Positions 17,832 through 54,103 of a DNA stretch of 64,000 bases are shown here, in pieces. The position numbers were made by a program, and so were the translations under genes. Each line of letters opens with the position of its first letter. Positions within the stretch are counted from its first letter, which is position 1. The stretch is from a virus. The notes below the pieces were generated by a model that saw nothing but the letters and a program-made list of their open reading frames with translations, was not told where the DNA came from and ran no database searches. The stretch covers positions 1-64,000 of the IMG/VR virus record IMGVR_UViG_3300035698_017305; one strand, given 5' to 3'.

Positions 17832-17906
17832 TGCCCGTGGAGGGATTTGAACCCCCGACACAGAGTACTAGAAGCTCCTGCTCTAACCAGACTGAGCTAC
17901 ACAGGC
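17832..17906 (-). tRNA. tRNA with CUA anticodon (amber suppressor-type)
   Basis: GCCTGTG/CACGGGC acceptor, canonical D and T arms, 5-nt variable loop; loop TT-CTA-GT at 32-38; C31.A39 mismatch. Confidence 0.75.
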
Positions 17907-29221: not shown

Positions 29222-29516
29222 AGATGACCGCTGGCAAGTTGTCTAAGGGGACGGTCAACTCCCTTTGTCCCACTTATACCCGGCATGCCTTTACCTGATG
29301 TTAGGTGGGATCAGAATAACGAAGTAGTTTACAGGACAAGGGGGAGAGAACGATGAGCCGTACACAGGATCAGAACATCGGGTAGACTCTTCAAAGAATC
29401 CCTAGTCGTCCTACGTCGAACACTCACCTGCCTCCTCTCCCCCTTGTGGTTCCTGAGGGTGACTATGATATCATTGTCGGACAGTTGAAGCTGACCTCGC
29501 CACCTTTTTCGTTGTA

Positions 29517-29588
29517 AGCGGACAGTGGGATTTGAACCCACGGCAACCTGCATGGCAAGCAGGTACTCTACCACTGAGTTATGCCCGC
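29517..29588 (-). tRNA. trnG: tRNA-Gly(GCC)
   Basis: CCTGC-TTGCCAT-GCAGG. Confidence 0.95.
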
Positions 29589-29589
29589 A

Positions 29590-30660
29590 CATAGGGAATG
29601 GAGTTACTCGGCAAGAAGCCTACACAGGTCTCGAATCTGGGATTCAGTATTCACCTTTTCGGGTACTGGGTTGTTCCCCTATCCCACTTGCCGCCAATCC
29701 GCGTGTCCCTATTCTGAGTACGATACCACAAGTGTGCTGTCACGCCAAAGAACATGTCATCTCACTCCTCGTGACCCGTCTACCCACATCCCTTTTGAGA
29801 AGCGAAGGAACGGATGTAGGACCGGTGTGTCTCCGGTAGGCGTGGCATGCCCGAGTTTAACCTAACTACGCAGCCGTAGTGTGGCCGGACATGTCAGCAG
29901 TACCCTTGCAGGAGCCCCTATCAGGCACACCCGGAACTCATTCGACAACCACGGCCAATGTGGCGGCAAATGACCGGACCTTTAGTTCTCTCCCTACGGG
30001 CCTGTGCGATCACAAAGGTTCACTCATTATAGGCAACCCTTCAACCCCACTGATACTAAGGTTGTTGGGAAGGGACGGTTAATTCCATCCTGGCTGCTTC
30101 TAAGCCCACCTCCTGATGGTATTCGTACCACAGACTGGGTTGTGAGTTTCCAGCTCACGTCCCGCCTGATTATTGATTAGTGACAGCATAGGTGTGCTGT
30201 TACGCCAAAGAGAAACCCCTTTCCTGTCGCTGAAGGTTACCTGTCCCTAGGAGACTGGTAGGGTTACTTCCACATTTACCCAAGCCTTGAAGTTCACATC
30301 CTGTTACCAGACACACTCCGTTCCTCGCTTGGTGCTTCGTCTCACTCCTTAGAAGCGACTTGACATCCAGAGATGTCAAGAAGGGACAGTTAATTCCGTC
30401 CTGGCTGCCTCTATGCCAACTTTCCTATGCTATCGAATGGGTAGGTGGTCTTTCAGATATTTTTGCATACTTTTTGACATTTAAACAGTTTGTCCATTTA
30501 CACATTACATCCTACACGCCTTACGTCTGCAACATAAACCTTATTAGGGTCGATAGTGTTTGGGATCATATCAATTCGCCTTCACCCAGGAGGCTAGCTA
30601 TACTTTCGGGTATAACGCCTACTCGTGCTTAGGCACGTCTTCTCTTACTCAACCCGCCTA
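29590..30660 (-). ncRNA. Large (~1 kb) structured ncRNA, GOLLD-like candidate, with two 23S-rRNA H43/H44-like domains
   Basis: No credible ORF; many stems; repeated GGC(T/A)TAGA(A/G)GCAGCCA...TTTGGCGT(A/G)ACAGCACAC; ends approximate. Confidence 0.7.
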
Positions 30661-30669
30661 CCCAAGGCG

Positions 30670-31206
30670 TTATAGTTCCATCTCTAGATAGTCCAGGTCA
30701 GCAGCTTCCAATGGGATTTCCAGTTCCAACGCATTGAGTTTAGACAATCTGGCCTGCAACTCTCTCTTCCTCTTCTTCAGCCCCTTGATCTGGAGCTTTA
30801 TACTGGCACGGCTGTCCAAAGGTCTCACCTCTACCTCGGTGATTACCTTCAGCCCGCCGTTTACTTCAACGCTGCTTCTCTTGGATGCTTCCGATCCTTC
30901 CAGAGCTACATCACATAAACCCAGTAATTCCTCAGTGTTCTTGATATCCCGCACAGTTTCACCCACGCCGTTGTTTGTGTTGAACGCGGCGAGGTGTGTG
31001 TTAACCAAATTGGACACTCGGAATGCGGCCTTGACCTTGGGCAGATATGTATCGAAGTCATCCATCTCCCCACGGCCTTCTACCACTACCCCATCGTTTA
31101 AGACCTCATGGTAGGCTACTCTGAATCTGGATTTCCCCAGCAAGGCGTTAACCACCTGCATAATTTCATTCTTGATAGGTAACCATTCGTTCACCGTTTT
31201 TCTCAT
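30670..31206 (-). CDS. Hypothetical coiled-coil protein
   Basis: 178 aa; SD AAGGAG. Confidence 0.7.
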   Translation of the reverse strand: MRKTVNEWLPIKNEIMQVVNALLGKSRFRVAYHEVLNDGVVVEGRGEMDDFDTYLPKVKAAFRVSNLVNTHLAAFNTNNGVGETVRDIKNTEELLGLCDVALEGSEASKRSSVEVNGGLKVITEVEVRPLDSRASIKLQIKGLKKRKRELQARLSKLNALELEIPLEAADLDYLEMEL

Positions 31207-31686: not shown

Positions 31687-32040
31687 TGGTGGAGGTGGCG
31701 GGAATCGAACCCGCGTCCGCGAACACTTACCGTGCTCATCTACGTGTGTGTCCAACCTTTCTATCCTGAAAGACATGGTTGGCAACGCTTTCAGGACCCC
31801 ACTGCCTTACCCGTGTGGGGAACACCGGGACGGGTTTTGTCAGCTATTACCCGATACTGACAACCGGGGAGTCTAAGGTGACGTTCTAGCCTACAGCGAC
31901 TCTCCGTAGGTAGACCGCGCTACTCTCTAAGCAGCGATGGGAAGTTGATTTTCGGCAACTATCTAGGTTTGTTCTGTAACGTAGAACATCCGACACGCAA
32001 AGCACGACTCAATTATTCCCGTCGAATCCAGGTCACCCCC
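31687..32040 (-). ncRNA. ssrA: tmRNA, tag (A)AENQLPIAA
   Basis: GGGGGTG..GGATTCGACGG 5' end; CACCTCC-A-CCA 3' end with G3.U70; ATAGTT resume context then GCC GAA AAT CAA CTT CCC ATC GCT GCT TAG. Confidence 0.95.
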
Positions 32041-46808: not shown

Positions 46809-47017
46809 TGCAAGGGTCCAAGGTACCAGCACCACTGTGTCCGAATCCTTTATGCCGCAATCAGTTCACCATACGAGTGAAGACTGTGGCAGGTGGGAAG
46901 CGCGCTGAATACATCTGTCCTAAATGCGCGGAGTCTTTTGAGATTCCTCGTGTTGTTATGGGGGAACCCAACCTAAAAAGAAGGGGGAGCACCATTGGCT
47001 CTCCCCCCTCTGACTAA
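46808..47017 (+). CDS. Small Zn-ribbon protein
   Basis: CPNPLC...CPKC. Confidence 0.6.
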   Translation: MQGSKVPAPLCPNPLCRNQFTIRVKTVAGGKRAEYICPKCAESFEIPRVVMGEPNLKRRGSTIGSPPSD

Positions 47018-47664
47018 CTGAACAGGTTGTAGGCAGTCATCTTCATGTCTTTCAACGTGAACATGTATCCTAGGTACTCGTCGTTGTCTATAAACCGGCA
47101 TATAGCCTCAGCCATCATACCCACAGTGAAGTGTACTAGGTTACGCGCAAGTGGGTACTCACACACATCCAGTCCGTCCTCTTCAACAGCGGGTCGTTTA
47201 AACCTAGGGTTCCAATACACCTCGGAGTAACCTTGAGCGGCCATCCCTCCGTGTAAGCAGGGCACCACACCATTTCCGCATGTGTCATGGATTAGTTGCC
47301 GGGAGTCCCAGTTGTCAAACGCATCCACCACAAGGCGGTTGCCCCTAAGTATCTTGAGTGCGTTCTTTTCAACCAGCCTACACGTCTCTATCACAGGTTT
47401 AACCCGGTATGCTTGGTAGATCATAGCCTGCATCACAGCAGCTTTGTTCTTCCCAATGAACCTCCTTTCAAAGTTCTGGTTACCTAGGTTATGAGATTCT
47501 ATCTTGTCATCATCCAGGAACCTGACGTTATTAAACCCCAGTTGGTACAGGATAGGAATTAGGTTTGACCCTAAAGCCCCCACGCCACACACCATTATCT
47601 GTGAGTTCTTTCTTCGTGTCAGGTCACCTCGATACAACTCCTCATGGGTTAGGGCATCCGCCAT
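47014..47664 (-). CDS. ThiF/E1-like activating enzyme (set 2)
   Basis: CGVGALGS, LDDDKIESHNLGNQ, DAFDNWDSR, CEYP. Confidence 0.9.
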   Translation of the reverse strand: MADALTHEELYRGDLTRRKNSQIMVCGVGALGSNLIPILYQLGFNNVRFLDDDKIESHNLGNQNFERRFIGKNKAAVMQAMIYQAYRVKPVIETCRLVEKNALKILRGNRLVVDAFDNWDSRQLIHDTCGNGVVPCLHGGMAAQGYSEVYWNPRFKRPAVEEDGLDVCEYPLARNLVHFTVGMMAEAICRFIDNDEYLGYMFTLKDMKMTAYNLFS

Positions 47665-48127
47665 TTTTCCCTCTTATCTGCGGTAGACATGCCTGTCCGA
47701 GTATGGAGGCCCCTTCAAAGTAAAGGTTTCGTCCACGCATGGATAGCAGATCTATGCGGTTGTGGATTTGAATTGGTTGCTTATCCGGCAGGGGTAGAAA
47801 CAGGAAACACCCTATGGTTTGGAAGTCACCAGACGCTGATGCGATGATACATAGCAACGGTCTTCCCAATGCTATTGCCCACCCTGAGTGAGTCCTATGG
47901 TCTGTAGCACTCCAGTGCACGCCCCCACCCGGTGGATGCGTATGCAAGAAGCCAATGAAGTCACTGTGGGGTACAGACAGTTCGTGCAGTCTTTCCATAG
48001 TGACTTCAAAGTCGAAGTTAGCCGGTCCGTTGTCAGTGTAATCAATAGGTATCTTCTGGAGGAGGTGCTCAGCATCTATAGCCTCAGCGAAGTGCAAGGT
48101 CCATCCTAGTTCCCGGAACCTAGTCAT
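47642..48127 (-). CDS. JAB/MPN peptidase (set 2)
   Basis: GFLHTHPPGGGVHWSATD. Confidence 0.8.
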   Translation of the reverse strand: MTRFRELGWTLHFAEAIDAEHLLQKIPIDYTDNGPANFDFEVTMERLHELSVPHSDFIGFLHTHPPGGGVHWSATDHRTHSGWAIALGRPLLCIIASASGDFQTIGCFLFLPLPDKQPIQIHNRIDLLSMRGRNLYFEGASILGQACLPQIRGKNGGCPNP

Positions 48128-48890
48128 AGTAGACACCCCGATTGACCAGACCGCGTTTAGCGGCTTCTATAACCTGGGGGCTGACTCCCAGCTCATCCAT
48201 CATCTGTGAGGTGTGTAGGTTCCGTTCCACTATCATAGAGAACACTCTCCGCTCTAGGTCAAGCTGCTGTACAGCCTCAGTGAGAACTGTAGTCACGCCC
48301 TCACTGGATGTAACAGCCCGTACCGTACCACCAGTTGGGGCTGCAAACTCGGCGAATGCTTCCTCCAACGGTATATCGTGGTGTCCATGTACACATAGGG
48401 CGTGAATGATCACACCTTTCTTCTCAAATGCGGATGACACGTCATCCTCTGTGATACCTTCCCCCTGAGGGTAATGGTCATACTCCTTGTACTTGGGGAT
48501 CCCGTGTTGAGGGGCGTCACCAACCAGTATGCAGTACTTAAGGGAGTGCTCCCTCCATGGGTACTTCAGCGAGGCCGCCAACCCAGTCAGTACTGCCTCA
48601 GGAGCGTCAGCCCCTCCACCAGCGGTGAGCTTACGGATCATAGGTCCCACTTCGGATACCGGGACTAACCTACCATCCGTCATGTCCTTAACTATCCAGG
48701 CATCTGTGAAGTCTCGGTAGGCTGTCACCCCAACTTTGATGTCGGTGTCGGTGTCCTTGGCTACCTTGTTGATCATGCTGAGCATGGTTGTTTTGCAGTA
48801 TTCTAGATCTCTACCCATGGATCCAGTGGCGTCTAAGCAGAACACCAAATCCAGGGATGAGATGTTCTCTTTTTCACCAATCGTATTCAT
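48120..48890 (-). CDS. vWA-domain protein
   Basis: LVFCLDATGSM, YRD, GGGADAPE, LVGDAPQHG; start approximate. Confidence 0.9.
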   Translation of the reverse strand: MNTIGEKENISSLDLVFCLDATGSMGRDLEYCKTTMLSMINKVAKDTDTDIKVGVTAYRDFTDAWIVKDMTDGRLVPVSEVGPMIRKLTAGGGADAPEAVLTGLAASLKYPWREHSLKYCILVGDAPQHGIPKYKEYDHYPQGEGITEDDVSSAFEKKGVIIHALCVHGHHDIPLEEAFAEFAAPTGGTVRAVTSSEGVTTVLTEAVQQLDLERRVFSMIVERNLHTSQMMDELGVSPQVIEAAKRGLVNRGVYYD

Positions 48891-49743
48891 CATCATCTCC
48901 GTCATCATCGTCATCTCCAATAGAGTCGGCCCCGTTGGTCCCGGGAACGCTCACTCTGTAGATCAGTTTTCTACGTTCCCCCTCAGCCACTACGCTTCCT
49001 AGTGCGGTTAGGTCATACACCTTGTCGGTACCATTCAGACATATCCCGGCGTTTACCACCTGGAAGTTAGTCTTTCTGACCCTGGTGAAGTAGGGGTTGC
49101 CAGCCCTAGACTTCCATTCGATCACAAGGTGGTCTCCTTGGTCCATCAGACGCATGAGCTTTCCGCCTGAGGCTAAGAGAGCGTCTCCTACCAACTCCTC
49201 TACAGATTTCTTGCGCCGTGCTTTCTCGTGCTGTACAGCCATGGCTAGGGCTAACAAGTCTGTGGGGGTCATGAACTTGGCTTTCTCTACAGTACCTGCC
49301 TTGAACATCTCTAACATGACAGGGGTTTGATCGAACCCTATCCCAGCAGGTTCCCAGTAGTACCAGTTGGTATGATCGGAGGCTACCCTGACCACATCAA
49401 ACCTTTCCGCACCCTCGACCAAGTGGATCGGAATGATCTCATCGTTCCAGGCACCAAACCAGATGCCGTCTTCTTCATAGAACAAACGTACATTAGCCTT
49501 CACAGGGAGGCACTTCAGGTAGTCGTCCTTCTCTATCTCATCTGCGGGCCGTTGAATTCTTAACCAAGGGGGAGCACATCTGAACAGATGCCACCCATGA
49601 GATGGATTACCCTGCACCTTGAGGGTTACCAGGGTCTTGTCCATTATCACTTTGATGCGCCTACTCCCTAGGAAAGGAGCTACCACGTCAGTAGGTGGTT
49701 TGGCACGCTCCTTTTGGATCATCTTTTCGACAAGACTATCCAT
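48874..49743 (-). CDS. Hypothetical protein of the Ro60/E1 operon
   Basis: 289 aa; C-terminal GICL.G.D..YDL.AL. Confidence 0.75.
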   Translation of the reverse strand: MDSLVEKMIQKERAKPPTDVVAPFLGSRRIKVIMDKTLVTLKVQGNPSHGWHLFRCAPPWLRIQRPADEIEKDDYLKCLPVKANVRLFYEEDGIWFGAWNDEIIPIHLVEGAERFDVVRVASDHTNWYYWEPAGIGFDQTPVMLEMFKAGTVEKAKFMTPTDLLALAMAVQHEKARRKKSVEELVGDALLASGGKLMRLMDQGDHLVIEWKSRAGNPYFTRVRKTNFQVVNAGICLNGTDKVYDLTALGSVVAEGERRKLIYRVSVPGTNGADSIGDDDDDGDDDEYDW

Positions 49744-49784
49744 AGGACTCTCCTTTCATTGTTTAGGAATGTGTGGGTAGGGAG

Positions 49785-49858
49785 GGAGAATGACGGGATT
49801 CGAACCCGCAGTACCTGGAGTCACAGTCCAGTGCCATAACCGTTAGGCTACACTCTCC
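49785..49858 (-). tRNA. trnH: tRNA-His(GTG) with G-1:C73
   Basis: CTGGA-CTGTGAC-TCCAG; 8-bp acceptor. Confidence 0.95.
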
Positions 49859-49887
49859 ATAAATTCTCCGCCCCCTACCCACACTAA

Positions 49888-51606
49888 TTAGGCTGCTCTA
49901 TCGTCTACGGGCAGTGGTGTGTCCATGATCTCTTGCAGAGTGTTCCTAAGAGTTCTGCGAGACAGGAACCTGATAACATCCGGGACCGCAATGAGGTCAG
50001 TGCTGTCGTCCAGGTTGAACACTTGAATGGCGGTGCCAGCGGTGGCCGCAGCATCACGTACACAGCGGTGTCTCTTGTCTTCCAGACTGCCCCACCTTCC
50101 CAGTTTAATCAAGCAAATACTTACCTCATCTGATCCAGGAGGAGCCGTCTCCAGATACTTGGGCCACACATCCGGGAACCGAGGAGCACTATTCTCTCCT
50201 TCATCCGTGATGATAATGACGTTTTCCGCAAAGTCACCACTCCTCATCATCTCGTCGATGCCTACACCAACAGAGGTGGATCCAAGTGCTCTTACCCTAC
50301 GGAACGCCGTAGTCCAGTCCTGTAGCGTACCTCTGCCCGGTACATTGATCTTGTCGGCTTTCACCTCGAAGGTGTATGTGTGCAGAGGAGTACCCGCAAC
50401 CATGGAGGCCGAAATCATAGACCCCAAGGTCTTGGCCAGCTCGATTGCAGCACCCATGGACGTACTACAGTCAACCAGAAGAACGGTCGGCTTGTTGATA
50501 ACCTTCTTGACGCGGGCGTCAGACACTTGGAGAATTTTCTCCTTGATATCTGCGCTGACAGCGGTAGATTCCGCAGCTTTCACCGCCTTTAAGGTATCAA
50601 CCCGACCAGACTTCTTGGCCTTCTTCAGTCGAGACTCCAAGAGCTTGGCAAGGTCCGGGTTGTCCCATGCACCTTTCTTCCTGAATGCTTCCACATTCAT
50701 CAGAAGCTCCTGAGGAGACATTACACTGATCAGTGCTGCCATAACAGCAGGAGTCTGAGTAGTCACCGAGCCTACCGCGATTGGGTAGGGGATTTTGTAC
50801 TTGGCGATCAATTCAGCCTGCTCAGCAGGGTCACTTGTGGTACTCAGCACCTTCTGGTAGTACAGCTTAGGAGTCCTGTGTTCGAGTGGATTCTTCTCAA
50901 ACAGGGCTGACTGTACCCATCCAACTGGTGGTGTATGCGTCCAACTGTACAGAGACTTCAGTGCGCTACCAGCTCTGACAGCGATGGCATCAAACATTTC
51001 TGTGTTGTCCTCCAGGTCACGGAGTAGGCCACCCACAACCTTGCTGACCCTCTTAGGAATGTTCTTAGCTCCCGGGATACCGGTTACCTGGAACACTGAG
51101 GTCATGTAGGTGCCGTCCCGATTCTTCTCAAACCGGAGGTCTGCATCTTTTGCTCTGGGAATCTTGGCTTTGACCAACCTCAGGAATGCTTCCCGTTCCG
51201 TAGCCGTGGAAGTGCCGTTCCGTAGCTTTGGGTTTAGGTCCGTCTTTGCCTTCATGATGTCCTTGTCGTCAGACAATTTCACCACAACCTTACCTTCCTT
51301 GAGCAGGTTGATGATCCGGTGAATCTCATACACTGGGAACCTGGGCAGTAAGGCAGCCCCAACATCCCTGAACAGGACGTCATCAGGCATACCTCGGAGT
51401 AAGTACGCTGTCATCAGTTCCTTGTGATCCCGGATCTCCGTGTTGTCCATGGCCCATACAGCGAGGTGGGCGAAGAATTCCGGGTCCGCTTCGAACATTG
51501 TCCGGAATAACTCATGAGATCCCTTGCCGATATTCCGGTGTGGAGTACTCATGAAAGCCTTTAGCATGTCCAATCGGACATCAGCTTCTCTGGTTTCGGT
51601 CGCCAT
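49888..51606 (-). CDS. Ro60-like TROVE + vWA RNA-binding protein (divergent)
   Basis: Helical N-terminus (DPEFFAHLAVW..IRD), SPQELLMNV, C-terminal vWA LVDCSTSM, GSTS, IITDEGEN; SD AAGGAG. Confidence 0.75.
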   Translation of the reverse strand: MATETREADVRLDMLKAFMSTPHRNIGKGSHELFRTMFEADPEFFAHLAVWAMDNTEIRDHKELMTAYLLRGMPDDVLFRDVGAALLPRFPVYEIHRIINLLKEGKVVVKLSDDKDIMKAKTDLNPKLRNGTSTATEREAFLRLVKAKIPRAKDADLRFEKNRDGTYMTSVFQVTGIPGAKNIPKRVSKVVGGLLRDLEDNTEMFDAIAVRAGSALKSLYSWTHTPPVGWVQSALFEKNPLEHRTPKLYYQKVLSTTSDPAEQAELIAKYKIPYPIAVGSVTTQTPAVMAALISVMSPQELLMNVEAFRKKGAWDNPDLAKLLESRLKKAKKSGRVDTLKAVKAAESTAVSADIKEKILQVSDARVKKVINKPTVLLVDCSTSMGAAIELAKTLGSMISASMVAGTPLHTYTFEVKADKINVPGRGTLQDWTTAFRRVRALGSTSVGVGIDEMMRSGDFAENVIIITDEGENSAPRFPDVWPKYLETAPPGSDEVSICLIKLGRWGSLEDKRHRCVRDAAATAGTAIQVFNLDDSTDLIAVPDVIRFLSRRTLRNTLQEIMDTPLPVDDRAA

Positions 51607-51653
51607 ATGACTTTCTCCTTTTCATTTCTGGACCGCTACCGTTTTATAGGTAT

Positions 51654-51714
51654 AAAAAAAGATCGCAGGAAGTCACCGAGGTAGGTCCAATACCACGGAA
51701 GTGCTTGCGATCTT
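51654..51714 (-). terminator. Long hairpin plus T-tract between RNA array and Ro60-like gene
   Basis: AAGATCGCA...TGCGATCTT followed by TTTTT on minus strand. Confidence 0.6.
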
Positions 51715-51746
51715 CCCCATGTGGGGACTGTCTAATGAATATGGTT

Positions 51747-51825
51747 AGAACAGCTAGCTAGTCGTGGGAACCGTTGTTTTTCGCCAAATGAAAATGTATG
51801 TTCCGACTGTAGGGCTAGCTGTTCT
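51747..51825 (-). ncRNA. Y-RNA-like unit 1: scaffold only, no tRNA module
   Basis: 12-bp outer stem AGAACAGCTAGC; CCTAC-AGTC-GGAAC-ATACA ... GTTCC-CAC-GACT-AGC. Confidence 0.75.
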
Positions 51826-51842
51826 TTTCTGACTTGGTTTCT

Positions 51843-51982
51843 GGGGTAGCGAGTCTGTAGGCCCAATTGATTTGTTAGTCTGATCCGTAGTCAGATGCCT
51901 TAACCACTTGGCCACATATGATTTCTCACATGATGGGATTCGAACCCACGTTAAAATGTATGGCCCACATGTAGGGCTACCC
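51843..51982 (-). ncRNA. Y-RNA-like unit 2: permuted tRNA T-acceptor-D-anticodon (ACG)
   Basis: GTGGG-TTCGAAT-CCCAT; CATGTGA-GAAA-TCATATG; TGGCCAAGTGGTTAAGGC; TCTGA-CTACGGA-TCAGA. Confidence 0.85.
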
Positions 51983-51999
51983 TAGAACTGTATAGTGTT

Positions 52000-52149
52000 T
52001 TTCGAGAGTGCTAGTCGAAGGACCCATTGTAAAACTGGATGCTCTACCATTGAGCTACTTGGGCTCAAGCCCAAGACAGGAATTGAACCTGCGCCTTCCC
52101 CTTGGTATGGGACGTTTGTGTATGGCCCGTCTGTAGGGCACTCTCGAAA
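52000..52149 (-). ncRNA. Y-RNA-like unit 3: permuted tRNA (anticodon ACC)-T-acceptor-D, YrlA-like
   Basis: TCCC-ATACCAA-GGGG; GCAGG-TTCAATT-CCTGT; CTTGGGC-TTGA-GCCCAAG; TAGCTCAATGGTAGAGC. Confidence 0.85.
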
Positions 52150-52163
52150 TTGTGTATAAATGC

Positions 52164-52317
52164 TATGGAACTAGCGAGTCGTAAAGCCCATTGATCTTTA
52201 ATCGCTTGTGCTAAATACAAGTGCCTTTACCAATTTGGCCACTCTGGGTGAGCCCCAGAGGAAGGATTCGAACCTCCAAAATGATATGTATGGCTTAACT
52301 GTAGGGCTAATTCCATA
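52164..52317 (-). ncRNA. Y-RNA-like unit 4: permuted tRNA T-acceptor-D-anticodon (TTA)
   Basis: GGAGG-TTCGAAT-CCTTC; CTCTGGG-GCTCA-CCCAGAG; GCCAAATTGGTAAAGGC; CTTGT-ATTTAGC-ACAAG. Confidence 0.85.
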
Positions 52318-52334
52318 TTGAAACTGTTAAGGTG

Positions 52335-52464
52335 CGGCTAGCTAGTCGAGAGACCCATATTAGGTACACCGAGGTGGAATTGAACCACCGACTTTTTGCT
52401 TAATAGGCAAATGCTCTATCCAACTGAGCTATTGGTATGTATGGCCTAACTGTAGGGCTAACCG
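52335..52464 (-). ncRNA. Y-RNA-like unit 5: unpermuted Asn-like cloverleaf (ATT) inside scaffold
   Basis: ATACCAA/TCGGTGT-ACCT; GCTC-AGTTGGATA-GAGC; TTTGC-CTATTAA-GCAAA; GGTGG-TTCAATT-CCACC. Confidence 0.85.
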
Positions 52465-52492
52465 AACCTATATTTGATTTCCAAAGAACTGA

Positions 52493-52664
52493 ACATTAGA
52501 GAAGATGGGGCAGCTAGTCGAGAGATCCCAAGTAACTTAACTAAGCTACTCCCCCGTAGTGGTGGGGGAGGCTGGAATTGAACCAGCGACACTTTACTTT
52601 CACGTAAATGCTCTACCATTGTTTGTATGATCCAACTGTAGGGCTACCTCATCATCTCTAATGT
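52493..52664 (-). ncRNA. Y-RNA-like unit 6: tRNA opened in the D loop (Phe-like GAA)
   Basis: GGTAGAGC; TTTAC-GTGAAA-GTAAA; GCTGG-TTCAATT-CCAGC; CTCCCCC-ACCACTAC-GGGGGAG; TAGCTT. Confidence 0.85.
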
Positions 52665-52674
52665 CAAAGAATTA

Positions 52675-52810
52675 AACTGTGAGCGGGTAACTAGTCGAAG
52701 GGCCTTTGTAACGTTCTGCTTCATCAGCAGCCCCCGTATGGTGGAGGCTCAGGGAGTTAAACCCCGAACTGTTATGTACGGTCCCACTGTAGGGTTACCC
52801 CGTCACAGTT
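52675..52810 (-). ncRNA. Y-RNA-like unit 7: T arm plus closed Ala/tmRNA-like acceptor
   Basis: CGGGG-TTTAACT-CCCTG; AGCCTCC-ACCATAC-GGGGGCT (G3.U70). Confidence 0.8.
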
Positions 52811-53036
52811 ATTTACCGAACTTACCGTCTGGCCTCAAGTGTACTGTGCCGGACGCTTCAAATGGGTCTGCAACAAACGAGTTGAATGTTGAGACGTCTT
52901 TGCTGAGTGCACCGGCTACTGCCAGCTTAAGGTCTGCTTCATCGAAGACATCTCCTAAGTCCAACTCCTCCACTGGGAGTGTTTGGGATTGTCCGTCAAC
53001 GAACACGTTTATGAATTGGAAGTTATTACGTTCCAT
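52809..53036 (-). CDS. Small ubiquitin-like (beta-grasp-type) protein ending FG-K
   Basis: 75 aa after SD AAGGAG; INVFVDGQSQTLPV...GTVHLRPDGKFGK; same operon as JAB/E1 set 2. Confidence 0.6.
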   Translation of the reverse strand: MERNNFQFINVFVDGQSQTLPVEELDLGDVFDEADLKLAVAGALSKDVSTFNSFVADPFEASGTVHLRPDGKFGK

Positions 53037-53083: not shown

Positions 53084-54103
53084 TCAAGAACTTTTTATTT
53101 TTGATTTCCCCCACATGACCGGTGCAGGTTTTCCGTCCTTGAGTATGGGCTTAGCCTTGTGTTTCTTCTTTGGCCTGGGGGGAGGGGCTGGTAGCTTGTC
53201 AGACTTCCTGATCTTATCCAACGTTAGCTTAGCCACGGCCTCTCCTATAGCCAGTGCCTGTGAGTCCCTGGGGAATAGATGGCGTTTACCATCAGATAAC
53301 CCGTAGTGCCGGTTACCTTCCCAGAATATATAGCTACCATCCCGTAGTTTACTGTAGTCTAGTGCTACGAAATCGTGTCCGAGCAGTTGGCCCGCCCGCA
53401 ATACTTGATCAGCATTAGGCTCACCGCCCCTCAAGAACATCCTGTCCTCGTGCAGGGCCTGTGGGTGTGTAAGTGTATCCCTCATGTGAACGTTCCACTT
53501 GTCAGCGACAACCAACTGGCGCAGAATCAGTTGATCTCCTATGACAAACGTTCTCCACTTCCGGTAGTATCCATCTTCACTCTGGTAATCTGCATACTTG
53601 ATAGCCAGGGTTAGCTTTACCCTACTGTCTTTGATTACCTTAGCCGCCTCTTTACTGTTGTGTACGAGGTGCATGTGACGGCCACCATGGTCACTGTCTC
53701 TTCTTAGAATGGCTGGGTAGCCAATAGATAGAGCAGTGAATGATGAGAACAGTTGATGCTGCGGAGTTGGGATACCATTATCTTCCCACACCCTATACAT
53801 CGTAGAGTGTTTGTTATCGAACTTACTGATTGGTTGTATCACAGGCAGGCCAATCTCGCGTGCCCGGACTTCTATCTGTTTGGCTTTGGAGAGGTACTCT
53901 TGCTTGGCTCCATACGACCAGAACAAGATCGCATCATAGTCGAACAACTTGGGCATGGCCGTGAACTGGGGACATATAGTTGTCCATTTCAGCCCAGCCT
54001 TTTGAAACCCGTCAGTCAGGGATTTACCTGCGGGGTTACGGGTAAACATCGCTTCTGTGTTAGTTACCACTAGAACTCTAGGTCCCTGACCGACTGGTGC
54101 CAT
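53084..54103 (-). CDS. ATP-grasp-fold protein, paralog of 44184-45209
   Basis: PAILRR..DHGG, YYRKWRTFVIG, FVALDY, FWEGN. Confidence 0.75.
   Translation of the reverse strand: MAPVGQGPRVLVVTNTEAMFTRNPAGKSLTDGFQKAGLKWTTICPQFTAMPKLFDYDAILFWSYGAKQEYLSKAKQIEVRAREIGLPVIQPISKFDNKHSTMYRVWEDNGIPTPQHQLFSSFTALSIGYPAILRRDSDHGGRHMHLVHNSKEAAKVIKDSRVKLTLAIKYADYQSEDGYYRKWRTFVIGDQLILRQLVVADKWNVHMRDTLTHPQALHEDRMFLRGGEPNADQVLRAGQLLGHDFVALDYSKLRDGSYIFWEGNRHYGLSDGKRHLFPRDSQALAIGEAVAKLTLDKIRKSDKLPAPPPRPKKKHKAKPILKDGKPAPVMWGKSKIKSS

Follow-up and report, generated by a model that had tools for sequence, protein, structure and literature searches.

A conserved cassette in huge phages and bacteria sets a Ro60-like gene and tRNA-like RNAs beside the genes of a predicted ubiquitin-like activation pathway

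Ro60 particles and the ubiquitin-like pathways of prokaryotes have both been well studied, always separately, and the question raised by the stretch of phage DNA described here is why the genes of the two should be locked into one cassette. The stretch (hereafter the window) makes up the first 64 kb of a virus record of 132.8 kb in IMG/VR (IMGVR_UViG_3300035698_017305, estimated completeness 71%); it has a GC content of ~50% and encodes 16 tRNAs and one transfer-messenger RNA (tmRNA). Between positions 47014 and 53036, all on the minus strand, lie in order the genes for a ubiquitin-like protein (Ubl), an array of Y-RNA-like units, a Ro60-like protein with a von Willebrand factor A (vWA) domain, a tRNA-His, a protein of 289 residues that belongs to a new family (H289), a stand-alone vWA protein, a JAMM/JAB metallopeptidase and a minimal ThiF-type E1 enzyme. 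This order had been put forward in a sequence-only reading of the window, and it matched the list of open reading frames (ORFs), the tRNA scan and the family searches. We lean towards the view, which we hold to be moderately probable, that the cassette is a conserved functional module joining a Ro60-like particle and tRNA-mimicking RNAs to a dedicated Ubl activation pathway.

The evidence that carries this view is that the arrangement recurs. Searches with single sequences of the locus found no relatives and profiles were required; with profiles 22 loci were found among viral contigs, in phages of 23 to 572 kb, and 421 bacterial loci among species-representative genomes, the best 80 of which were used for the counts given here. 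ORF calling produced antisense artefacts ('cluster 5') in high-GC bacterial loci, and members were therefore counted by hidden Markov model searches of six-frame translations, in loci with sufficient flanking DNA only. Counted in this way the viral loci contain Ubl in 16/20 cases, H289 in 18/20, E1 in 18/20 and JAB in 17/20, and the corresponding figures for bacterial loci are 56/62, 38/49, 36/49 and 8/49. All members share the strand of the Ro60-like gene and follow one order, namely Ubl, (RNAs), Ro60-like, H289, (JAB), E1, and the identity of the cassette proteins to those of the window is 25-40%. Co-conservation with the Ro60-like gene was a check that had been named beforehand, and the Ubl, E1, JAB and H289 genes are indeed co-conserved with it in huge phages and in bacteria; because the arrangement recurs in phage and bacterial loci at 25-40% identity it is far beyond chance. 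The bacteria include Planctomycetota, Cyanobacteriota (Nostoc, Moorena, Spirulina), Chloroflexota, Armatimonadota, Acidobacteriota and others, and some of the loci lie on multi-megabase contigs beside ordinary sensor kinases; the cassette belongs to chromosomes as well as to phages.

The Ubl gene (52809-53036) encodes 75 amino acids ending ...LRPDGKFG-K and is preceded by a strong AAGGAG 8 nt before its ATG. Whether its product folds as a beta-grasp was the other check named in advance, and the fold is borne out: a model made from an alignment of 15 homologues has a predicted local distance difference test (pLDDT) score of 85 and the order strand-strand-helix-strand-strand with a floppy tail, and the best 50 rows of its VIA-align comparison are all ubiquitin-superfold domains, including MoaD, ISG15 and Fubi. 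A Foldseek search with the same model gave nothing significant, with protein L and ubiquitin-type domains at the top of its list. The family has a near-invariant C-terminus, RPEAV(F/Y)G, in which the Gly is invariant in the alignment and preceded by F, Y or W, and the stop codon follows directly after this Gly in 58/61 bacterial and 10/17 viral copies (68/78 together). Tails of 1-4 residues past the Gly are found in 8/26 loci with JAB versus 0/31 complete loci without it (Fisher p 0.0009, a value that is not strict, as the test counts related loci and thus non-independent events). The window Ubl, with Lys75 past Gly74 (FG-K), is one of the eight tailed copies. Because tailed copies are confined to loci that encode JAB, the link between tail and JAB reads as characteristic of a Ubl with a Gly predicted to be exposed by a JAMM peptidase.

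That peptidase (164 aa, 47642-48136) matches Pfam Prok-JAB with an E-value of 3.8e-4 and a score of 20.8, below the cut-off of 25, and its family has the invariant motif G-x-x-H-x-H-P...S-x-x-D (H65, H67, S76, D79) together with an upstream Glu. The E1 (216 aa, 47014-47664) is a clear member of Pfam ThiF (1.3e-23; 83.8 bits, cut-off 28.1) in which R12 (the Arg finger), G27xG29xxG32, D51, K74, D117 and R122 are invariant and N118 nearly so; the aspartates for ribose and for Mg/ATP (D117) are thereby retained. Its Cys168, ~50 residues after D117/N118, is conserved in 14/14 Ro60-linked copies and is a candidate equivalent of the active-site Cys of ThiF or Uba enzymes. No NCBIfam equivalog was reached, and the matches to ThiF, MoeB and UbaA (the SAMP activator) there, like that to the Cap2 E1 domain in PADLOC, were all far under their cut-offs.

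The sequence-only reading had stated that the set contains no E2, listing the H289 gene (48874-49743) as hypothetical. It is correct that no E2 family can be detected, but with its invariant Cys the hypothetical protein may itself fill the role of carrier. The H289 family comprises 1064 representative clusters at E-values up to 0.001, and across 96 diverse representatives G233, C235 and D240 are the sole invariant residues. A model with a pLDDT of 84 has two OB-like barrels of an RNA type (~residues 16-142), a long helix and then a C-terminal part made up of four strands, a G-x-C-L-x-G-x-D loop and a final helix, followed here, as often in the family, by an acidic tail. The order of these elements and the 'GxCL' cysteine are reminiscent of E2 enzymes. 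Tests for an E2 came back empty throughout: Pfam and PDB searches with HMMER on the C-terminal domain (17 and then 96 sequences) gave no UBC, RWD or Prok-E2 match, PADLOC and NCBIfam gave no match, two ESM Atlas searches were empty, and the list of matches to the whole model in Foldseek and VIA-align was filled by OB barrels and held no E2. The hhalign probability was 2.5% against one Prok-E2_A sequence and 0.1% against another E2-like region encoded by this phage, and for building an E2 profile there were too few sequences. Empty tests do not prove that H289 is no E2, and an invariant Cys alone is insufficient to make it one; because each test of E2 membership came back empty we describe H289 as a conserved-cysteine OB protein and candidate carrier, and do not call it an E2.

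The protein at the centre of the cassette (572 aa, 49888-51606) consists of a helical-repeat part followed by a vWA domain, and we read it as a divergent homologue of Ro60 (TROVE plus vWA) with a putative ring and putative RNA binding. Pfam TROVE (PF05731) gave no match to the protein, to the whole record or to any of 27 family members. A profile of those 27 members searched against PDB matched solved Ro60/TROVE chains only (9l5y/9kop, 9nen, 1yvp and 2nvo; E-values 1.5e-7 to 5.5e-4) and nothing else at E-values up to 1, the matched chains being the Ro60 of Thermus phage phiLo, human and Xenopus Ro60, and Deinococcus Rsr. In addition, four of the homologues match Pfam vWA_Ro60, the protein itself matches phrog_850 ('RNA-binding protein', 7.7e-10), and its metal-ion-dependent adhesion site (MIDAS) residues D379/S381/S383/T444/D468 are intact, with the DxSxS, T and D invariant in the family alignment. 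A quick tree of the Ro60-like protein, in which the window copy sits on a very long branch, requires four or more switches between viral and bacterial rows. Two short contigs (L051 and L032) that are assigned to bacterial metagenome-assembled genomes are nested in viral clades of this tree, one of them (L051) with JAB and a tailed Ubl as well, and may be phage contigs that were binned with bacteria.

Between the Ubl and Ro60-like genes, in 1.06 kb that has no long ORF, lie seven Y-RNA-like units (~51746-52806), found with a combined motif and stem scan. Each has an outer stem of 6-12 bp that brackets CCUACA (5' side) and GACU(A/C)G (3' side), and a tRNA-like module within, and the 7 matches to CCTACA...GACT[AC]G with a stem are all in the array and none elsewhere in the window. 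Within one unit is a complete tRNA(AUU) cloverleaf (52363-52438), and Rfam also gives tRNA matches inside the array. The best matches to Rfam YrlA are 36.4 and 25.2 bits, under the gathering score of RF02553 (69 bits); the array RNAs are like YrlA in architecture yet are a different sequence family. The exact scaffold motif of the window was not found in the other loci; a relaxed form of it is visible in folds, and a scaffold of the same kind stands beside Ubl/Ro60 in four phage loci (L002, L009, L011 and L014), where tRNA-like genes flank Ubl. Among bacteria, a YrlA-like match was found in Moorena (L077), again between the Ubl and Ro60-like genes.

Whether the cassette is transcribed as a unit is a separate matter. 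The sequence-only reading had described one operon, and its details held up: the Ubl stop codon directly abuts the first RNA unit, which begins right at the stop, and the last four genes do overlap (H289/vWA by up to 47 nt, counted from a TTG start, vWA/JAB by 17 nt and JAB/E1 by 23 nt). The gene set is linked, but a single operon is no more than putative, as a terminator-like hairpin followed by U7 (51654-51714) stands between the array and the Ro60-like gene. The fold of 51650-51760 has a free energy of -33.3 kcal/mol (z -3.1) and a 9-bp closing stem followed by UUUUUUU; a simple terminator scan did not list the hairpin at 51654-51714. Because of this hairpin the Ubl and RNA part may in this phage be on a separate transcript from the protein part, or joined to it by read-through only. 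In many other loci the Ubl stop codon lies 4-60 nt from the Ro60-like gene, which fits co-transcription.

From these genes we infer a pathway in which the JAB peptidase would remove the residue or residues past the conserved C-terminal Gly of Ubl (Lys75 here), and would probably also reverse conjugates. The minimal E1 would then adenylate the exposed Gly, and the activated Ubl would pass to a cysteine, that of E1 (Cys168) and/or that of H289 (Cys235), H289 being the best candidate for a carrier or specificity factor that replaces a classical E2. Finally, Ubl would become covalently attached to a target recruited by the Ro60/Y-RNA particle. The proposal of a combined ribonucleoprotein and Ubl system thus survives in its central part, in that a functional tie between the Ubl module and the Ro60/RNA particle is well supported by fold and by co-conservation. 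What has been observed are the folds and families, the catalytic motifs, the co-conservation and the tie between Ubl tails and JAB; the chemical steps, the role of Cys235 and the identity of the target (Ro60, its clients or RNA in the sequence-only reading) belong to the inferred part.

Several observations weigh against this pathway as a whole or in part. There is no recognisable E2, E3 or conjugation target in the set, and the C-terminal domain of H289 gave no UBC, RWD or Prok-E2 match by any method tried. The Ro60-like protein falls below detection by Pfam TROVE, and with the hairpin between it and the array co-transcription in this phage is at most putative. JAB is present in so few of the bacterial loci that de-conjugation can be no universal step, and the comparison of tails with JAB draws on related loci.

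The main rival is that Ubl is a sulfur carrier, which once adenylated by E1 would be converted to a thiocarboxylate as are ThiS, MoaD, TtuB and Urm1; through the H289 Cys its sulfur would then thiolate the tRNA-like RNAs or whatever RNAs Ro60 holds. This we consider unlikely. It is true that, of named families, ThiF, MoeB and the SAMP activator come nearest to the E1, with scores under their cut-offs, that neither an E2 nor an E3 is detected, that a single invariant Cys in H289 would suit a persulfide relay, that tRNA-like RNAs belong to the set and that trimming by a JAB is known for QbsD/QbsE and CysO/Mec. However, the conserved neighbours of the cassette include neither a PP-loop ATPase nor a rhodanese or cysteine desulfurase, the E1 is without a rhodanese domain, the Ubl ends in aromatic-Gly where known carriers end in Gly-Gly, and the model of H289 is one of OB barrels and a small domain with no thiolase fold. 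A sulfur donor could be encoded elsewhere, although the combination that marks a sulfur carrier, namely a Gly-Gly end with a sulfur donor and an acceptor enzyme nearby, is not found in the neighbourhood. The same E1 chemistry allows a different outcome on RNA: adenylation of the C-terminal Gly of Ubl is the same chemistry as amino-acid activation, and Ubl might be esterified not to a protein but to an RNA end, of the Y-like RNAs or of damaged RNAs in the Ro60 ring, with H289 as an RNA-directed transferase. We regard this as decidedly improbable; if true it would be a case of protein-to-RNA tagging in bacteria and phages.

Other readings do without a conjugation pathway that works for the phage, and each is less likely than the sulfur carrier. 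The phage copy could be an instrument of counter-defence, interfering with a host version of the cassette or with host Ubl defences such as Bil and CBASS Cap2/Cap3. Bacterial chromosomes do carry the same cassette, JAB is kept far more often in the phage copies than in the bacterial ones, the Ro60-like tree needs its repeated switches between viral and bacterial rows, and a second Ubl/E2-like/JAB/E1 set is present in this phage. The retention by phages of the full set, with intact catalytic motifs and RNAs, is however what would be expected of a working pathway and not of a single inhibitor, and the defence models of PADLOC match nothing beyond a generic E1 similarity, so that hijacking seems rather improbable. 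A purely non-covalent role, in which Ubl would serve the Ro60-like particle as a small subunit or regulator, or would be a signalling adenylate to which the H289 Cys is unrelated, appears about as improbable as hijacking. That no target, E2 or E3 was found would fit it, as would the position of the Ubl gene amid RNA genes and the ability of beta-grasp domains to bind RNA (TGS; PMC1779556), but a near-invariant free C-terminal Gly, a dedicated E1 with a complete set of adenylation residues and a peptidase linked to the tails are difficult to account for unless the C-terminus is activated. As for mere adjacency of two unrelated modules in a part of a large phage genome that is rich in tRNAs, one may point to the terminator-like hairpin, to the abundance of tRNA genes and to several loci in which other genes are inserted between members; set against these are ~100 loci that span several clades of phages and six or more phyla of bacteria, with a fixed order and at low identity, and we find adjacency very hard to credit.

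The reading that we prefer, of a Ro60-like particle coupled to Ubl activation, has partial precedents in systems that are well characterised. The Ro60 (Rsr)/Y RNA particles, such as those with YrlA/YrlB, the Deinococcus Rsr-Y RNA-PNPase complex and the phiLo particle with Yrl1/Yrl2, resemble the window set in a Ro60 homologue, predicted here to be of the ring type, that has a vWA domain with a MIDAS, and in adjoining small RNAs that combine a closing stem with a tRNA-like module. Phage copies are known, as Thermus phage phiLo encodes a Ro60 together with Yrl1/Yrl2 (PMC4201824, PMC12135203). Unlike known Ro60 proteins, that of the window is too divergent for Pfam TROVE, it is accompanied by a seven-RNA array with its own scaffold motif, and Ubl, E1, JAB and the Cys protein replace partners of the RtcB or PNPase type; RtcB was not found in this record.

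Ubl systems that function independently of an E2 are known from archaea (SAMP/UbaA/HvJAMM1) and from Thermus (TtuB/TtuC with a JAMM peptidase). Like the window set they combine a small beta-grasp protein that has a C-terminal Gly with one ThiF-type E1 and a JAMM peptidase, and have no classical E2/E3. In contrast to them the window Ubl ends in aromatic-Gly and not Gly-Gly, the E1 is far smaller and stays under the curated family cut-offs, and the set adds a conserved Cys/OB protein and is fixed to a Ro60-like ribonucleoprotein locus. The Bil (BilA-D), Bub and CBASS Cap2/Cap3 systems likewise cluster Ubl, E1 and JAB genes in the context of phage-bacterium conflict (10.1101/2023.09.04.556158, 10.1101/2023.09.26.559546, PMC11601596), and PADLOC finds weak similarity of the window E1 to the Cap2 E1 domain. 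Unlike in Bil and Bub there is no detectable E2 domain in the set, the combination of Ubl, E1, E2 and peptidase is incomplete, no PADLOC model fits beyond a generic E1 similarity, and the partner is an RNA-binding particle rather than the tail-fibre target or CD-NTase of Bil and CBASS. In the QbsE/QbsD/QbsC and CysO/Mec systems (operon types 4a-4c, PMC1779556) a JAB trims past the Gly and an E1 adenylates, and the link between tail and JAB seen here fits that scheme. The window cassette differs from these in having no biosynthetic enzymes, rhodanese or cysteine synthase, and in a Ubl end that is not Gly-Gly.

Among eukaryotes, Ro60 is paired in the Ro/SSA antigen with the E3 ligase Ro52/TRIM21, and Atg8 and Atg12 end in aromatic-Gly, that of Atg8 being trimmed by Atg4. 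Both are likenesses by analogy only, the first of an RNA-surveillance particle with ubiquitin-type tagging and the second, for Atg8, of an aromatic-Gly end exposed by a protease as predicted for the window Ubl, and the enzymes differ.

The feature is real and strongly conserved, and it is apparently undescribed. In the searchable literature no paper was found that links Ro60/TROVE to a Ubl/E1/JAB set, though an earlier description may exist elsewhere. A preprint on Asgard viruses records both Ro60 and ThiF genes for one virus but draws no connection between the two, a survey of jumbo phages mentions ROT/TROVE proteins solely as an RNA-repair platform, and no operon type of this kind is listed in a 2006 catalogue of Ubl operons from prokaryotes. 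No curated entry in Pfam, NCBIfam, PADLOC or PHROGs names Ubl or H289, and family members are called in their sources only 'hypothetical protein' or, in one case, 'uncharacterized protein with vWA domain'. A DNA search of GenBank phages found no close relative of the window phage, and a homologue of H289 was found there in one unannotated 595-kb uncultured phage only. The parts come from known families and the predicted chemistry is conventional; the novelty lies in the Cys/OB protein and in the tie with a Ro60 particle. What bacterial Ro60 particles do to their clients has long been unclear, and the cassette gives a testable answer with a compact set of enzymes, as well as a possible carrier of Ubl other than an E2 with a UBC fold. 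Its occurrence in huge phages and in the chromosomes of cyanobacteria, planctomycetes, Chloroflexota and others, with a Cys/OB family of >1000 clusters, gives the question some breadth.

Two further genes lie within the cassette of the window. The tRNA-His(GUG) (49784-49857), between the Ro60-like and H289 genes, was called by both ARAGORN and Rfam (65.5 bits). The stand-alone vWA protein (266 aa, 48120-48920; Pfam VWA_4, 4.9e-8) has homologues that fall into the same position class, found in L005, L012/13, L030, L034, L036, L041, L060 and L087, and is 27% identical to a Gemmataceae copy (E-value 4e-23); because it recurs in only ~9 other loci we class it as an accessory component. In some bacterial copies genes for AAA-family ATPases are inserted between the Ro60-like gene and H289 (L042 11649-13295; L056 12279-13307). 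Just upstream of Ubl ends the gene of an ATP-grasp-like protein of 339 aa (53084-54103, minus strand) with weak RimK/LysX matches (E-value ~3e-4). Enzymes of the RimK/LysX type add residues at protein C-termini, and a local tie between this protein and the tail of Ubl is conceivable but unsupported; as a member of the module the gene was rejected, since it is absent from every related locus.

Some bacterial copies carry features that connect the locus with translation. In cyanobacterial copies a mimic of the GTPase-associated centre of 23S rRNA (helices 43-44) lies between the Ro60-like gene and H289, with matches of 52-55 bits, over the gathering score for the large subunit rRNA, in L077 (11543-11627), L086 (11962-12044) and L100 (12345-12400), and the motif is also present in L071, L079, L085, L094 and L097. 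A paralogue of ribosomal protein L7/L12 (130 aa; Pfam Ribosomal_L12, 1e-23) is encoded just upstream of the Ro60-like gene in L085 (9351-9740) and also in L073, L074, L100 and L101, these being filamentous cyanobacteria (four Nostocales loci and one Spirulina). The rRNA mimic and the L7/L12 paralogue point to the ribosomal stalk, and because both are found in some cyanobacterial copies it is suggested that the system monitors or shields the translation machinery when phage and host are in conflict. The window itself has two sites resembling helix 43 on the minus strand (30089-30106 and 30400-30417; GGCTTAGAAGCAGCCA-type, with 2 and 3 mismatches, where 0.15 are expected), ~17 kb from the cassette. 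They were given by a motif search, and Rfam detected no rRNA mimic in positions 29400-30900.

The second Ubl set of this phage (33586-37998, minus strand) is separate from the Ro60-linked set and more Bil-like. Its ThiS-like protein is 85 aa long and ends GG-N (Pfam ThiS, 4e-6). The other members are a protein of 831 aa, without a Pfam match, in which the stretch 'HPH...PCLGN' is E2-like, a 360-aa protein with an HxH...S..D motif, and a 217-aa ThiF E1 that has 30% identity to the Ro60-linked E1. For the 831-aa protein no homologue of comparable length was found among proteins of 457-1455 aa.

Finally, other RNA genes of interest are found in the window and in related loci. A tRNA with the anticodon CUA (17832-17906), called by ARAGORN as Pyl, is a possible amber suppressor. 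A related 123-kb phage contig (L002) has a partial match to bacterial RNase P RNA at 1540-1741 (72 bits, gathering score 100). The phage tmRNA of the window (31687-32040) encodes the tag AENQLPIAA, and tmRNA genes are also found near the cassette in L001, L004, L015 and L016.

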